From a virus (taxonomy: Duplodnaviria > Caudoviricetes), in the IMG/VR virus record IMGVR_UViG_3300033145_001556, positions 1 through 50,416 of that record: DNA of 50,416 bases, one strand, 5' to 3'. The notes under the pieces were generated by a model, which was not told where the DNA came from, did not search any database, and saw only the letters and a program-made list of their open reading frames with translations. Shown piece by piece: positions 23,834-39,460 of the stretch (within the stretch, counting starts at the first letter, position 1; each line of letters starts with the position of its first letter). Position numbers and translations under genes: made by a program.

Positions 23834-24050
23834 CGCGTTCAGCCCTCTTCAGAACCTGTCGGAGCTTCTCGTGCCACTCGCGTCCGTCCTTGCCGGTGAT
23901 GATTCGCCCGAGCTCCTCTAGCTGGAGGGTTCCGGCGTCGAGATCTCGGACGACAGCACATAGGGTTTGGCCGTCGGTGAGTTGCAGGCTTCCCTGGCCA
24001 TACGCACCATGAAGCTGGGCTGCGCGTGCCCAGCGATATCGGTCAAAGGG
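23826..24050 (-). other. -1 programmed frameshift site (CCCTTTG, 24044-24050) and 72-aa gpGT-like extension
   Basis: The -1 frame reads DRYRWARAAQLHGAYGQGSLQLTDGQ...AERDG* without stops and ends at 23826, overlapping the tape measure start. Confidence 0.8.
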
Positions 24051-24562
24051 AGCAGGTGGCCCGCCCGGGCCACCGCAACGACCTTCGTCCAGAAGTCGTT
24101 CTCGTCCTCGACCGTATCGCGGACGTCGGTCAGCTGCTTGTAGACGGTCATCCGTCCCAGCAGGTCCTGCAGGCTGCCCTCGTCATAGCGCGCGAGCTCC
24201 TCGTGGTCCTCGAGCTGCCCGTGCGGCTCCTCCGGGGTGCGGATGGCGCGAGCGAGGAGACAGACCTGCTCCATCTCGTCGAACAGGTCCTGGTCGTGCT
24301 CGACGCTCAGTCCCTCGTGCTCGCCGAACCAGACGCGGGTGGCGGCGCGCGCCAGCACCTGGTCCTCGGGAGTCGGCACGCACACGCGGCAGTTGCTGAC
24401 CTCGACCTTGCCGGACGGCGCTCGGCGTCGGATCTGGTCCTTGAACATCAGCTTGCCGGAGTCGTGGCGTTTCACCTCGAGCTCGGCCCAGCTGCGGCCC
24501 CCGAGCTCGGGGATCGGCTGGTCCTGCCAGGGTTGCGGTTGTTGCTCGGTCTCGTTTGACAT
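23918..24562 (-). CDS. Tail assembly chaperone (gpG-like), short product
   Basis: Between tube and tape measure; GAGGAGG RBS; contains in-frame C CCT TTG. Confidence 0.8.
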   Translation of the reverse strand: MSNETEQQPQPWQDQPIPELGGRSWAELEVKRHDSGKLMFKDQIRRRAPSGKVEVSNCRVCVPTPEDQVLARAATRVWFGEHEGLSVEHDQDLFDEMEQVCLLARAIRTPEEPHGQLEDHEELARYDEGSLQDLLGRMTVYKQLTDVRDTVEDENDFWTKVVAVARAGHLLPLTDIAGHAQPSFMVRMAREACNSPTAKPYVLSSEISTPEPSS

Positions 24563-34920: not shown

Positions 34921-37518
34921 CTACTGACCCAGTCTGCGGATTTCTCGGACGCGTTCAACCATGTCGAAGGCTCCCGCGTCCCGAGCGCGCAGGACGGCCT
35001 TGTCCGTGTGGTACAGCGAGAAGGACTCAGCAAAGTACTCCGCGGGGTCCTGCTCCGCGTACGCGCTGACGCGGTGGGCCGCGCTGCCCTCGCGGCGGAT
35101 GTAGGCGCGCTGGATTGCGTGGTCGACCTGCTGCCACTCCTCGGTGCTCCCCGCGTAGTCCACGCCGCCGGCGCCGAGCTTGCGCCCGCGCATGTGCACC
35201 TCGTGACCGATCTCGTGGAAGGTCGACCGCCGGATCGCCTCCAGCTCGGTCTCGGCCGCCTCGGCCACGTTGAACAGCGCCGGACTGTCGGCGGTGAGTG
35301 CGCCGCGCCCGAAGGGGACGTTGCCGGTGCGGATCTTCATCTGCGCGCGGAGAGTCTGGTTGCCGAGCTGGACCTCCGGGTACCAGCAGCCCGAGCAGCC
35401 GTGTGGCATCGAGTTGCTGACTCGGCGGGAGTTGTTGGCCACGCGCTTCGTGAAGAGCAGGCGCTCGAGGGGCGACTCTTCCAGGAAGCGCAGGGCTCCC
35501 GCCTCGTTGAACGTGCTCATCACCGCGTCGTGCTCGCGCTTGCGGCGGAGCTTGCCCTGGATCCTCGCGAAGTGGCGGCCCTGCTCCGGCATCCCGGGGC
35601 GCGGTCGCGGCGGCGTCGGTACCGGTGGCGGCCGCGGCGGTGCAGATCCACCTCCGCCAGGTGGTGCAGCGGGTGGTGGCTGCCCTCCGCCTGCCGGCGC
35701 CGGCGGCGTCGACGGGATGGCGACGTCGCCCCCTCCGATGAGCCCGGTGGTGCCGGAGTCGAAGCCCGGGTCCGGGAGTTCGGTCGGCGCCGGGCCGATG
35801 GTGGCGCCCGTCTTGTCGACCCAGCGCTTCGAGCGCGAGATGACGCGGCAGCGGCAGTTGCTCGAGACAACGCCGTTCGCTACGATCCACCCGAGTGGCG
35901 ATTCGACGTCATACACATGGCCGCGAAACTCGAACTTCCGGACGCTGACCACCTGGTCGAGCGCTACCTGCGAGGGGTATCGCTGAAGCAGCTCGCGAGC
36001 GAGCGCAGCGTCAGCCGGCCGACCCTCGGTCGCATCCTTGAGGAGCACGGCGTCAAACTGCGAGGCCGTCCCGAGGCGGAGCGTCTGAAGTGGCGCGGCA
36101 TCAAGGGAAACAAGGCCGCCGTCGAGCGGCAATGCTCGGCCGCCTGGGCCAAGTCTCGCGGGCGCGACGTCCCCGTCCTCGAGCGACGAAAGCGAGCCCG
36201 CACCCACGCCCGGCGGCAGACTCGGCTCGGACTCTTCGAGGACGAGTTGGCTGGTCACATCGGCCACCGCGGCCTGGTGGTGCTGCAGCAGGCGCCAGTA
36301 GGACCCTACAACGTGGACTTCGCCTTCAAAGCAGCGCGCCTCGCCGTGGAACTCTTCACCTCGATAGCCGGTGAAGCTGCCACTGCCCGCTTCCGCGAGC
36401 GTACGGAATACCTGCTCGACTCGGGTTGGTGCCTGCTGATCGTCAGTCTCCGCACCGGGCCCCAGCGCGCCGACCCGGGTCTCAGCGACGTGGCAGACCA
36501 GGTGTTCGCCCTGCACGAGCGACTGCGCAGTGGTGAAGCCCTGCACGGTCAGTACGGGGTGATTGGCCGTCACGGTCAGCCGACGACCTACTGCAGTCGT
36601 GAGCTCGACGGCCTCCCCCGCATACCAGGCCTTTGACGCCCCGCAGACTTGGCCCGTGATCTCGGTGCCGGGCAGGAAGCAGTTGTAGCCGAAGGGCGGG
36701 TAGGCATCGCGCCAGAAGGGGTGGTCCGCGGGCAGGATGATCCCGTTGGCCGCCCGGTGCGTCTCGCGCTGCCGGTCATCCCGGACGGTCTGGACCTGCC
36801 AGTAGGGTCGAGCCGCGAGCACCGCGGGCTGGGTCATCTCCGCGAAGCGCCCCGACGAGTAGGCACTCCCCACGTTGGTGCGGAAGATGGTCTCGACGTG
36901 GCTCCGGTTGGCAGGCGTCCACCCAGCGCTTTCGAGTCGGGTGCGGACGTGCTTCTTGAACTCGCGGAAGTTGGGGCCCTTGTAGACCCACTTGTCCGTC
37001 GTCGGGTCCTTGTAGGTGCGCTCGCCAGACTGCCGCACCTGGCGGGCGAGTTCGCCGTGCGCCGTCTGCAGTAGCTCCTGCCGTGCCAGGCCCGCCACCG
37101 TGAAGGCCCGGCGCTTCGCGCCTGCCCGCAGGGCGTCGAACTGCTCCTTGGGCAGGATGGTGCGCGACTCGAACAGGCGCACCGCCTCCGCGTAGGGCGT
37201 CGACGCGAACGGACCGCGATCCCGCTTGAAGAGCACCTTGCTCGCAGTGAATGCGGGGAGCGGGATCTCCTCCTCGTGCTCACGCTCCCAGAGGCTGTCG
37301 AGGGCGCCGAGCATGACGCCGTGGAGGAGCTGCTGCTCAGCGAGTTCGGCGAAGCGCTCGAGGGGGAGCTGGTCCTCGATGCGGTTGAGTGCAGCCTTGA
37401 TGGCGGCCTCGCTGTCCTTGCCGTCGACGGCCTTGACGACCTGGTCGACCCACCGCTCGAGCTCGCGCGCTCCCGCGTCGACGCCAGACTCGACCAGGGT
37501 CTCGGGCGAGCCGTTCAC
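34921..37518 (-). CDS. MuF (Mu gp30/SPP1 gp7) minor head protein with intein, Pro-rich linker and C-terminal HExxH metallopeptidase; true start uncertain (frame open upstream to the portal slippery site)
   Basis: AFTVAG, TIFRTN, DDRQRETH, DHPFW...PPFGYN|intein|CRC; C-terminal HEIGH...SAYAEQDPAEYFAESF. Confidence 0.9.
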   Translation of the reverse strand: MNGSPETLVESGVDAGARELERWVDQVVKAVDGKDSEAAIKAALNRIEDQLPLERFAELAEQQLLHGVMLGALDSLWEREHEEEIPLPAFTASKVLFKRDRGPFASTPYAEAVRLFESRTILPKEQFDALRAGAKRRAFTVAGLARQELLQTAHGELARQVRQSGERTYKDPTTDKWVYKGPNFREFKKHVRTRLESAGWTPANRSHVETIFRTNVGSAYSSGRFAEMTQPAVLAARPYWQVQTVRDDRQRETHRAANGIILPADHPFWRDAYPPFGYNCFLPGTEITGQVCGASKAWYAGEAVELTTAVGRRLTVTANHPVLTVQGFTTAQSLVQGEHLVCHVAETRVGALGPGAETDDQQAPTRVEQVFRTLAEAGSGSFTGYRGEEFHGEARCFEGEVHVVGSYWRLLQHHQAAVADVTSQLVLEESEPSLPPGVGAGSLSSLEDGDVAPARLGPGGRALPLDGGLVSLDAAPLQTLRLGTASQFDAVLLKDATEGRPADAALARELLQRYPSQVALDQVVSVRKFEFRGHVYDVESPLGWIVANGVVSSNCRCRVISRSKRWVDKTGATIGPAPTELPDPGFDSGTTGLIGGGDVAIPSTPPAPAGGGQPPPAAPPGGGGSAPPRPPPVPTPPRPRPGMPEQGRHFARIQGKLRRKREHDAVMSTFNEAGALRFLEESPLERLLFTKRVANNSRRVSNSMPHGCSGCWYPEVQLGNQTLRAQMKIRTGNVPFGRGALTADSPALFNVAEAAETELEAIRRSTFHEIGHEVHMRGRKLGAGGVDYAGSTEEWQQVDHAIQRAYIRREGSAAHRVSAYAEQDPAEYFAESFSLYHTDKAVLRARDAGAFDMVERVREIRRLGQ
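35858..35886 (+). promoter_or_regulatory. Candidate sigma70 promoter for the antisense endonuclease gene
   Basis: TTGCTC (35858-63), 17-nt spacer, TACGAT (35881-86); 30 nt upstream of ATG 35917. Confidence 0.45.
35917..36636 (+). CDS. HTH + DUF559/Vsr-like endonuclease encoded antisense within the intein (239 aa)
   Basis: HTH-like LVERYLRGVSLKQLASERSVSRPTLGRILEEHGV; nuclease-like QAPVGPYNVDFAF...RLAVEL...RTEYLLDSGWCLLIV. Confidence 0.75.
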   Translation: MAAKLELPDADHLVERYLRGVSLKQLASERSVSRPTLGRILEEHGVKLRGRPEAERLKWRGIKGNKAAVERQCSAAWAKSRGRDVPVLERRKRARTHARRQTRLGLFEDELAGHIGHRGLVVLQQAPVGPYNVDFAFKAARLAVELFTSIAGEAATARFRERTEYLLDSGWCLLIVSLRTGPQRADPGLSDVADQVFALHERLRSGEALHGQYGVIGRHGQPTTYCSRELDGLPRIPGL

Positions 37519-37580
37519 CGTGTCCGGCTGCGACGCGCAGCAGACGTGGTCGCCGAAGTACTCGTGCGCCCGCAGGGCGG

Positions 37581-39101
37581 TCAGGAATCGTCCGAGCTCG
37601 CCTGCAACAGCCGCAGCTGTCGTACGTTCCGGGACGCGGCTAAAGGGGCGGCATCCCCCTCGGCAGGCGGCGCAGCCGGGTCACCGGTGGGCGAGCCCCC
37701 GCCCTCGGTGTCGTTCGCGGGGTCGCCGGGCATGGTGCCGACCTTCGGTGCCGGCGCGGCTGCGGGCGCCCCGAACCCGCCCGGCGCTGCCTGCGGCGAC
37801 TGCTGCACGACGGCGTCGCCCGGCTCGGGCTTGGAGAAGCCGATGGCCTCGTAGACCTCGTCCTCCTTGAGAGGCACGCCGATGCTCATGGCCTTCTTGG
37901 TGCGCTCCGTCTCGGCGGTACGGTCCGGCGGCAGTTCAAACTCGACCTTGATGGTCGGGCAGTGCGAGAGAGCCTCGGCTCCGAAGTTCACCTCGACGAC
38001 GCTGGCCGCGATGCCCTCGGTGAGGATCGCGCCGATGTTCCAGCCGTCGGCCGCGAGGACCAGCATCTGCTCGTCCTGCATGACCACGGCTTGCTGCCCG
38101 CCCAGGCCGTCAGCCTTGGCGTCAGTGGTCCGGGTGTTCCCGAGCACGAGCTTGCTGTTCTGGTCGTCGCACTCCGCGGCGACGTCCTTGTGGATTTCGC
38201 CGGCGCCGCGCGCCGGCTGGTCCGTCTTGACGTCCACGCCCTTGGGGAGCTGCGCCGAGCTGTTGGCGCCGAGCTTGTCGACGGTGGCACGCGCCTGGTC
38301 GAGCACGTCCTTCTGAATCGTGGCGTCGGGGGCGACGAACACGATGCGCCACGGCTTGCCGAACACCTCGAGCAGAATCATCCGCTCGCGCCAGTCGAAC
38401 CGCTTGAAGTAGCTGAAGTAGAGACAGCGCGGCCCGAAGCCTTCGCGCTCGGGGTACTCGTTGAACAGCTGGGGCGTGAACTCGATGAACTTGTGGGGGT
38501 AGTCGCGCAGGGCGAGGCCGCGCTTCTCGAAGCCGTACCCGCTGAACAGGTCGTCGCGTACGCGGAGCTCGCGCTCGGGTCCGAACGATAGGCGCCGCGG
38601 GTGGATCCAGCCCAGGTCGTCGATGCGCCACTGCACCTTGCCGCCGCGGTTCTCGCGCCAGTGCTTCTCGAGCGCGGCGCGGCCGTGGCAGTGCCCCCAG
38701 TTGAGCTGCAGCATGCGCTGCGGCAGGTGGGGGATCCAGGCCAGCTGCTGGCGCACGACGTCGGCGAGTTGATTGGCGAACTTGGGGTCGATGCCGTCGC
38801 CCTCGGCCGGGACGACCTTCGGGTGCATGGCGGCGAGGGAGCGGAAGCGCTTGCCGACGATGCTGCCGAGGTGCGGGTCGATGTGGATGGTCTCGTAGGT
38901 GAGATCGGTCAGGTCGCGCATGTGACCGAACTCGGCCGCGCGCAGGACTGTCTCGATGGTGGCCGGGGTGAGCGCGCGCCCGAAGTAGCGCCGGCACTGC
39001 TCGGTCTCGGGGATCTCCCCGCCGAACATCACGTCCTCGAGGTCGCGCCTCGACACCCACGTGCTGCCATCGGCTGCCGTTTTCGTGCCTACCTGTGCCA
39101 T
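37581..39101 (-). CDS. Portal protein (Mu gp29/DUF935-like)
   Basis: DPHLGSIVGKR, LEVFGKPW, SKLVLGNT, VYEAIGFSKP; lies between the terminase region and MuF. Confidence 0.92.
   Translation of the reverse strand: MAQVGTKTAADGSTWVSRRDLEDVMFGGEIPETEQCRRYFGRALTPATIETVLRAAEFGHMRDLTDLTYETIHIDPHLGSIVGKRFRSLAAMHPKVVPAEGDGIDPKFANQLADVVRQQLAWIPHLPQRMLQLNWGHCHGRAALEKHWRENRGGKVQWRIDDLGWIHPRRLSFGPERELRVRDDLFSGYGFEKRGLALRDYPHKFIEFTPQLFNEYPEREGFGPRCLYFSYFKRFDWRERMILLEVFGKPWRIVFVAPDATIQKDVLDQARATVDKLGANSSAQLPKGVDVKTDQPARGAGEIHKDVAAECDDQNSKLVLGNTRTTDAKADGLGGQQAVVMQDEQMLVLAADGWNIGAILTEGIAASVVEVNFGAEALSHCPTIKVEFELPPDRTAETERTKKAMSIGVPLKEDEVYEAIGFSKPEPGDAVVQQSPQAAPGGFGAPAAAPAPKVGTMPGDPANDTEGGGSPTGDPAAPPAEGDAAPLAASRNVRQLRLLQASSDDS
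37641..37647 (-). other. Candidate -1 ribosomal slippery site C CCT TTA joining portal to MuF
   Basis: In-frame X XXY YYZ; the -1 frame is the MuF frame and is stop-free; TTA is an unexpected codon in such GC-rich DNA. Confidence 0.7.
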
Positions 39102-39460
39102 GGCAACCACCTCCGCAGCTTGCTCTGACCCTGGTCGAACGCGCTCAGCAGGGTCTCGGCCACCTTCTTGAGTTGCTTGGACTCGCCCTCGCGTCGGGCG
39201 TGCTCGGCCATGATCTGGTCGGCGAGTTGCTCGAAGCGCGTGGCCCAGCGCTCGACCTCGGCCTGCAGGAGCCTGGCGCGTACCGTCGCGACCGGTGAGA
39301 GTCCGGCTTGCTTGAGCTGCGCCTGGGCCTGGGCGCGCCAGTCGCGCGCTTGCTTGCGCAGGTTGTTGGCGCACTGCTCGAGGCCCTGACGGTAGCCGTC
39401 GGCGACGCCGGCGTTGACCATGGCCTGGCTCAGGGGCTGGATGGGGAGGGGTTGGTTCAC
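39089..39460 (-). CDS. Hypothetical helical protein
   Basis: Overlaps both neighbours; coiled-coil-like. Confidence 0.6.
   Translation of the reverse strand: MNQPLPIQPLSQAMVNAGVADGYRQGLEQCANNLRKQARDWRAQAQAQLKQAGLSPVATVRARLLQAEVERWATRFEQLADQIMAEHARREGESKQLKKVAETLLSAFDQGQSKLRRWLPWHR

Follow-up and report, generated by a model that had tools for sequence, protein, structure and literature searches.

A conserved slippery heptamer at the portal-MuF junction of a tailed phage points to a programmed -1 frameshift that would fuse the two head proteins

The portal-MuF junction of the Caudoviricetes record IMGVR_UViG_3300033145_001556 (IMG/VR) raises the question of how a head protein is made when its reading frame has no start codon in front of its conserved N-terminal region. 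We analyzed the whole stretch of 50,416 nucleotides, called the window below, in which a portal gene is followed by a gene for a MuF protein that carries an intein and an enzyme-like domain. The likely answer, in our view, is a conserved -1 programmed ribosomal frameshift at the heptamer C CCT TTA, late in the portal gene, which would make a portal-MuF fusion of 1393 residues. This reading is drawn from the start-less MuF frame, from natural fusions that are colinear with the two window genes, and from the heptamer, which is kept in start-less loci and absent elsewhere. The same three lines support the proposal, made in a preliminary description of this DNA, that recoding fuses the portal to MuF, its intein and a C-terminal domain described there as a toxin.

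Coordinates are given in the window numbering, and all genes concerned lie on the minus strand (Table 1). The portal protein was assigned by its match to Pfam PF06074, above the curated cut-off (167.3 bits vs 23.9, E 7.7e-49), and it also matches PHROG 113 (portal). Its ATG 39101 corresponds to residue 92 of the long open reading frame (ORF) 39374..37581, is located where the portals of relatives begin, and is preceded by a strong Shine-Dalgarno (SD) sequence, GGAGGUGG (duplex -13.8 kcal/mol). The ORF is open for 91 codons upstream of this likely start (39102-39374), and a longest-ORF call from GTG 39374 would over-extend the gene.

The preliminary description placed GCC CCT TTA about 20 codons before the portal stop, and we found it there in the portal frame, with CCT at 37646-44 and TTA at 37643-41, 21 codons before the stop; 19 portal codons follow the TTA before the TGA is reached. 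In the numbering of the long ORF (P0001), the heptamer codons are Pro577 (CCT) and Leu578 (TTA), which become CCC TTT after a -1 slip. MuF is encoded in the -1 frame relative to the portal. This frame opens at 37680, after TGA 37683-81, runs to 34921, and holds no ATG, GTG or TTG between 37680 and the annotated MuF start, GTG 37518. We used its translation from 37680 (P0003) as the query for MuF relatives, and residues 14-54 of P0003 are the 41-codon peptide that had been described earlier as running without a stop into the MuF GTG. Portal and MuF domains sit in different frames with the portal stop between them, not in one continuous reading frame, and only read-through of the frame change would make the junction act like a natural portal-MuF fusion. 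The fusion predicted from ATG 39101 has 1393 residues, or 1118 without the 275-residue intein, in agreement with the earlier estimates of about 1390 and 1120.

The MuF gene lies directly after the portal gene, and its product matches Pfam PF04233 (52 bits vs a cut-off of 29.6, E 1.4e-13) and PHROG 220, 'minor head protein and DNA pilot' (E 8e-44). The public gene call P0096 uses GTG 37518 as its start. The preliminary description saw no evident SD sequence at this GTG, and our calculation agrees, since the 20 nt before it form no anti-SD duplex stronger than -3.2 kcal/mol, vs -6.3 to -13.8 kcal/mol for five other structural-gene starts. The P0003 search retrieved 92 MuF relatives of similar length and 200 longer ones. 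The alignment with MuF relatives reaches up to about 36 residues ahead of the window GTG. Free MuF relatives such as P0004, P0005 and P0097-P0110 have their N-termini some 36-40 residues ahead of this GTG, and the motif A-L-x-A-R-x-x-x-G-D-H-V-C-C-A-x-Q-P, located 5' of that position, is present in free relatives (P0004, P0005, P0010, P0016 and P0097-P0110) as well as in fused ones. The motif continues as G-D-H-V-C-C-A-x-Q-P-x-x-V-N-G-S-P, and GTG 37518 encodes the Val of V-N-G-S-P. The free relatives and the start-less -1 frame of the window have an N-terminal helix pattern in common, and the similarity of the -1 frame to free and fused MuF proteins begins at P0003 residue 18. In the 62-nt stretch between the portal stop and the GTG, the G+C content of third codon positions (GC3) is 20/20 in the MuF frame vs 15/21 and 10/20 in the other two frames. 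Judged from the alignments, GTG 37518 is not the true MuF N-terminus and is predicted to encode an internal conserved Val of the family. Because no MuF start codon is found upstream of the conserved N-terminal motif, the fusion is probably the sole source of full-length MuF.

In dozens of the longer relatives, Portal_Mu and MuF share a single ORF. We aligned the window portal and the -1-frame translation separately (blastp) to 26 fused portal-MuF proteins. The portal alignments stop at residues 559-590, exactly at P577 (the CCT codon) in four fusions, and in 12 of the 26 proteins the -1-frame alignment first sets in at residue 18, which is five residues past the Phe of TTT. In the fusion P0112, both alignments are colinear without an indel (subject positions 480 and 486), leaving room for exactly five -1-frame residues. 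By this comparison, the window arrangement is that of a portal-MuF fusion broken by a one-base frame change at the heptamer.

The preliminary description had named a survey of portal-muf junctions as a check, and the survey bore out its idea both in the in-frame fusions and in the conserved heptamer. Alignment-based scans fetched 126 loci (54 viral, 4 genome and 68 metagenome), which comprised 46 in-frame fusions, 25 split junctions with MuF in the -1 frame, 12 split junctions with MuF in the +1 frame, and 43 loci with no usable pair. Removal of identical junctions left 27 split junctions and 35 fusions. A canonical MuF start at or near the portal stop, often in an ATGA or GTGA overlap, was present in 23 of the 27 split junctions. 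The other four are start-less before the MuF motif, like the window: L001 (identical to L044 and L059), L003 (identical to L025 and L060), L017 (identical to L066), and L061. All four have the identical CCCTTTAG (C CCT TTA G) in phase at the same portal Pro-Leu, with different flanking DNA, and the heptamer lies 21-33 codons before the portal stop. These lineages have about 45-54% protein identity to the window. CCCTTTA was detected in none of the 23 junctions with a MuF start and in none of the 35 non-redundant fusion junctions. In L003, the -1-frame codon directly before CCC TTT is TGA, which excludes a shift farther upstream. In two relatives with a MuF ATG of their own, L004 and L011, this Asp-Pro-Leu is specified by the non-slippery codons GAC CCG CTC and GAC CCC CTG.

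The heptamer is composed of rare codons. Counted over portal and MuF, TTA accounts for 1 of 115 Leu codons and CCT for 11 of 114 Pro codons in the window; the corresponding counts are 2/97 and 9/101 in L001, 5/111 and 19/87 in L003, 1/95 and 25/136 in L017, and 1/76 and 7/64 in L061. The first canonical -1-frame start follows the heptamer after 43 codons in the window, 34 in L001, 109 in L003, 45 in L017 and 60 in L061, and independent initiation would therefore delete conserved sequence in all five loci.

Additional searches delimit this set. A pattern scan of viral contigs with CCCTTTAG plus GDHVCC found no contigs beyond the five already known; a looser pattern gave 18 loci, none of them with portal or MuF homology, and these were discarded as chance matches. 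The scan of genome contigs gave four loci, none start-less, and DNA and protein searches of a named phage collection gave no match. A single-protein scan of viral contigs had no match either, unlike the alignment-based scan.

The overlap itself appears to be coding in both frames. After the heptamer, the portal tail continues with Pro-Leu and an Arg/Leu-rich helix, and it is kept in split relatives, including L004 and L011, in which MuF does not overlap; conservation of the 0-frame tail in these two loci argues that the portal stop is real. Read in the -1 frame, the overlap aligns to N-termini of free and fused MuF proteins that have no such overlap.

A MuF tree was built from 58 rows (quick IQ-TREE, junction columns left out). 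The five frameshift-type rows fall within one 12-row clade (Shimodaira-Hasegawa-like approximate likelihood ratio test, SH-aLRT, 89), where they are basal to seven split-with-start rows, and the sister clade consists mostly of fusions. The frameshift-type lineages are about 1 substitution per site apart. The heptamers of the five lineages may share one origin and would then not be five independent inventions; what the tree documents is retention of the heptamer over about 1 substitution per site, not repeated invention. One clade holds the same pair of head proteins in three forms: fused in frame, joined through the proposed frameshift, and split into coupled genes. Since the frameshift form is basal in the split-gene clade and stands beside a mostly-fusion clade, it could be an evolutionary bridge between fused and split head genes, and the presence of fused, recoded and split versions side by side makes the question of gene fusion and splitting testable.

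The heptamer is of a type with measured slipperiness: according to the available part of PMC4066793, C_CC.U_UU.A and C_CC.U_UU.G are among 18 heptamers that give more than 0.1% frameshifting without stimulators and are under-represented in E. coli genes. A candidate upstream stimulator is the SD-like element GAGGGGGA, whose anti-SD duplex of -10.2 kcal/mol is in the top 5% of comparable spans in portal/MuF genes. The SD-like elements 5' of the heptamer rank in the top 4-5% in L003 and L061, at 15% in L017 and at 29% in L001. A role of this element as an upstream stimulator is suggestive only.

Several observations weigh against a frameshift at this site. Summed over the five loci, the overlap has a GC3 of 0.82 in the portal frame vs 0.57 in the -1 frame; it tracks the portal frame, so codon usage gives no independent sign of the -1 reading, and the support comes from homology. 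The single CCCTTTA in the 50-kb window (1 seen vs 0.72 expected) is at chance level, and an open -1 frame of such length is ordinary in the G+C-rich DNA of the window. With the window features alone at chance level, the case for the frameshift rests on the comparative data. Only five start-less lineages were found, and the MuF tree needs two to three state changes. In the split relative L014, homology to the MuF N-terminus lies 5' of the first start (TTG 2531) and overlaps the portal tail in a locus without CCCTTTA; in this locus (2246-2540), C CCA AAG occurs in phase at a distance of 55 codons from the portal stop, followed by an Arg-rich -1 stretch that is unlike MuF until much later. The U_UUA tetramer alone is 1.8-3.6-fold over background in E. 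coli in the available part of PMC4066793. The SD-like element is strong in three of the five loci, and its spacing from the heptamer, 6 to 19 nt, is not conserved.

The downstream RNA adds to these points. The preliminary description reported that a hairpin, ACAGC-tgcg-GCTGT, follows the heptamer; it exists and is part of the minimum-free-energy fold, but it lies 20 nt away and is not unusually stable. The 100 nt after the window heptamer are no more stable than shuffled sequences (z = -0.14; downstream-fold z-scores range from -0.14 to -0.30), and 26-37% of segments of the same size in portal/MuF genes fold equally well. In four of the five loci, 12-64% of background segments fold as well, and L061 alone is mildly unusual (5-7%). 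Neither the shuffle z-scores nor the background segments support the hairpin as a stimulator.

Free MuF might also come from non-canonical initiation or from termination-reinitiation at a near-cognate codon such as CTG 37584-82, which forms CTGA at the portal stop. The 4-nt ATGA or GTGA coupling in L002, L004, L011/L013, L020, L030, L035, L076, L079 and L104, with the window CTGA at a comparable place, would fit such a scheme, as would the strongest MuF conservation, which begins just past the portal stop. We regard it as unlikely: the -1 codon that overlaps the stop is CTA, no kind of start codon, in L001, L003 and L014, and reinitiation at CTG 37584 was rejected on account of these three relatives. 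No near-cognate codon is conserved over the five loci, and reinitiation leaves unexplained both the exact CCT TTA in all start-less loci (L001, L003, L017, L061 and the window) and nowhere else, and the alignment of the -1 frame 5' of the portal stop to free and fused MuF N-termini. A still smaller chance is given to the annotation being right, that is, to a free shortened MuF made from GTG 37518 with the open -1 frame upstream as the remnant of an older, longer gene. In favour of this view, no canonical start precedes this GTG in the open MuF frame, P0096 uses it, and long open off-frames are common in G+C-rich DNA. Translation from it would nevertheless begin without an SD sequence at a conserved internal Val and lose the conserved motif upstream, where GC3 in the MuF frame is 20/20; in L003 and L061, with first canonical starts 109 and 60 codons past the heptamer, even more conserved sequence would be deleted, and a decaying gene would not retain a heptamer of rare codons across lineages. 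Minor internal initiation at GTG 37518 may nonetheless accompany the frameshift.

The least probable explanation, to which we give hardly any weight, is an artefact or a dead gene, in which the C4T3 run of a true in-frame fusion has acquired a one-base error in the record or, recently, a frameshift mutation. The frame change does lie within short homopolymer runs, and close relatives have portal and MuF fused in frame. Four other diverged lineages, however, show this frame structure with the identical eight nucleotides, and the 0-frame portal tail is conserved (also in L004 and L011), with the overlap GC3 at 0.82 in the portal frame. L001 and L044, like L003 and L025, are different contigs with an identical junction within each pair; two lineages were thus assembled twice independently, and together with the conserved 0-frame tail this argues against an assembly error.

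A programmed -1 frameshift at C CCT TTA remains our preferred reading, and the following course of events is proposed. Ribosomes on the portal mRNA would reach C CCU UUA, where UUA, used for 1 of 115 Leu codons, is presumably decoded slowly. A fraction of the ribosomes would slip back one base, re-read CCU UUA as CCC UUU, and go on in the -1 frame through the entire MuF-intein-HExxH reading frame, giving the 1393-residue portal-MuF fusion and, after intein splicing, a protein of 1118 residues. Ribosomes that do not slip would make the 506-residue portal, ending 21 codons later with its own conserved C-terminal tail. The fused subunits would enter the portal ring in sub-stoichiometric numbers. 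A minority product that fixes stoichiometry and tethers the toxin at the DNA exit vertex, as put forward in the preliminary description, is conjectural.

More tentatively, and with the balance of our judgement slightly against it, portal-to-MuF recoding may be a general copy-number device that sets a small number of MuF-cargo portal subunits at the DNA exit vertex. If so, the bulky MuF-intein-enzyme cargo would be carried by few subunits, and most would keep the distinct C-terminal tail. With a frameshift of this kind, phage structural genes would have a second conserved site of recoding in addition to that of the tail chaperones, and a protein that is bound to the portal, carries an enzyme and is possibly injected could by this route be placed in controlled number at the unique vertex. 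Gene callers would shorten MuF in such phages, as in P0096 and in P0102, which starts inside the conserved motif, and miss the product of about 1400 residues. The very rare UUA codon in G+C-rich phages, with no obvious RNA structure, would make the site a case for slippage by a slow A-site codon.

The closest known parallel is the tail assembly chaperone pair G/GT, for which Xu, Hendrix and Duda reportedly described in 2004 a -1 frameshift in lambda and most long-tailed phages. As in the window, a conserved X XXY YYZ heptamer is placed towards the end of a structural gene and the extension lacks a separate start; G/GT gives two products with a common N-terminal part in a fixed ratio, and two such products are predicted for the window. 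The window phage apparently uses the same C CCU UUR type of heptamer at its candidate G/GT site. Unlike G/GT, the genes involved are portal and MuF, and in place of a short T domain the extension comprises an entire head protein of about 900 residues, intein and enzyme-like domain included.

The OrfAB transposases of IS3/IS911 type and the tau/gamma products of E. coli dnaX are likewise made by -1 frameshifts with tandem slippage on a heptamer. In IS3-type elements, the downstream ORF lacks initiation of its own and is translated solely as part of a trans-frame fusion, and in dnaX an upstream SD-like element stimulates the shift, to which GAGGGGGA is the candidate counterpart in the window. 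The IS3 and dnaX sites have a defined hairpin or pseudoknot and an SD element at fixed spacing, whereas the window has no exceptional downstream structure and the spacing of its SD-like element is not conserved. On the MuF side, SPP1 gp7 is a MuF protein that binds the portal, and Jamet et al. are said to have described in 2017 the MuF polymorphic toxins of temperate phages. With these proteins the window gene has in common the N-terminal MuF domain, the variable C-terminal enzyme- or toxin-like domain, and the portal association. They are free MuF proteins bound non-covalently to the portal, whereas the association in the window would be covalent, through recoding; the C-terminal domain of the window protein is only weakly classified. 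The IS3 signal served as the test bed in PMC4066793.

Single-ORF portal-MuF fusions are reported for Microbacterium phages of subclusters EA3, EA5 and EA8 and of cluster EB in the available part of PMC7302621, and portal-MuF-effector architectures occur among the polyvalent proteins in that of PMC5512222. In these proteins the portal domain is followed by MuF within a single polypeptide, an arrangement that is predicted for the window. Natural fusions are plain in-frame ORFs that place MuF on every portal subunit, whereas the join in the window needs a frame change; for the window, a plain portal is predicted as well, with a distinct conserved C-terminal tail absent from the fusions. The word 'frameshift' is absent from the available text of PMC5512222 and is used for tail chaperones only in that of PMC7302621, and the words 'portal' and 'MuF' are absent from the searched text of the recoding review PMC5009743. 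Our full-text literature searches found in-frame portal-MuF and MuF-toxin fusions and no portal-to-MuF frameshift, in line with the earlier remark that none had been described. As a separate observation, two fusions, L012 (L012:2494, CCCTTTT) and L049 (L049:2656, CCCAAAC), carry an in-phase heptamer at the domain junction, with a -1 stop two to three codons past it; a shift there would yield a portal without MuF, the mirror image of the window.

Table 1. Features of the portal-MuF region and of the candidate chaperone site in the window
Feature	Position	Strand	Description
Portal gene, 0 frame	37581..39101	-	Portal_Mu, 506 aa, ATG 39101 to TGA 37583-81
SD-like GAGGGGGA	37654..37661	-	6 nt upstream of heptamer; candidate upstream stimulator
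Slippery heptamer C CCT TTA	37641..37647	-	seen in the sequence; X XXY YYZ, in phase with portal
Dual-coding overlap	37581..37640	-	portal C-terminal tail (0 frame) and start of MuF N-terminal region (-1 frame)
Hairpin ACAGC tgcg GCTGT	37607..37620	-	in minimum-free-energy fold; begins 20 nt past heptamer
So-called intergenic stretch	37519..37580	-	coding in MuF frame, without start codon; motif ...YFGDHVCCASQP..
MuF gene as annotated	34921..37518	-	865 aa from GTG 37518; MuF domain, intein and C-terminal HExxH domain
Intein, 275 aa	35857..36681	-	Cys280 first, Asn554 last, +1 Cys; inside conserved ..PPFGYN/CRCR.. motif
HEIGHEVH (HExxH) motif	35194..35217	-	C-terminal zinc-peptidase-like domain
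Second heptamer C CCT TTG	24044..24050	-	in frame, candidate tail assembly chaperone ORF 24562..23918

The boundaries of the intein were taken from the alignment with uninterrupted relatives. The region matches Pfam Intein_splicing with 27.3 bits, under the cut-off of 35.8, and in the relative P0008 this site is likewise occupied by a Hint domain. The C-terminal domain of MuF (34921-35500) gave weak Pfam matches under the cut-offs, to ATLF (PF07737, 21 vs 27.4 bits) and to Peptidase_M90 (PF06167, 18.8 vs 26.2 bits); it appears weakly peptidase-like, and we did not assign it as a member of the zinc metallopeptidases. The cargo ends differ among the MuF relatives and include ADP-ribosyltransferase (PF03496, PF01129), GNAT (by source name) and peptidase-like domains.

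The PHROG profiles matched by the window portal and MuF are very long and are covered only in part, PHROG 113 over positions 47-437 of 1272 and PHROG 220 over positions 843-1058 of 1338. This suggests that both profiles were built largely from fused portal-MuF proteins.

The likeness of the CCCTTT core to a tail-chaperone site, pointed out in the preliminary description, holds for the second heptamer of Table 1. The ORF that contains it has no PHROG family match and sits between the genes for sheath/tube (PHROG 165) and tape measure (PHROG 794); its -1 frame stays open for 74 codons and ends shortly beyond the tape-measure ATG 23833.

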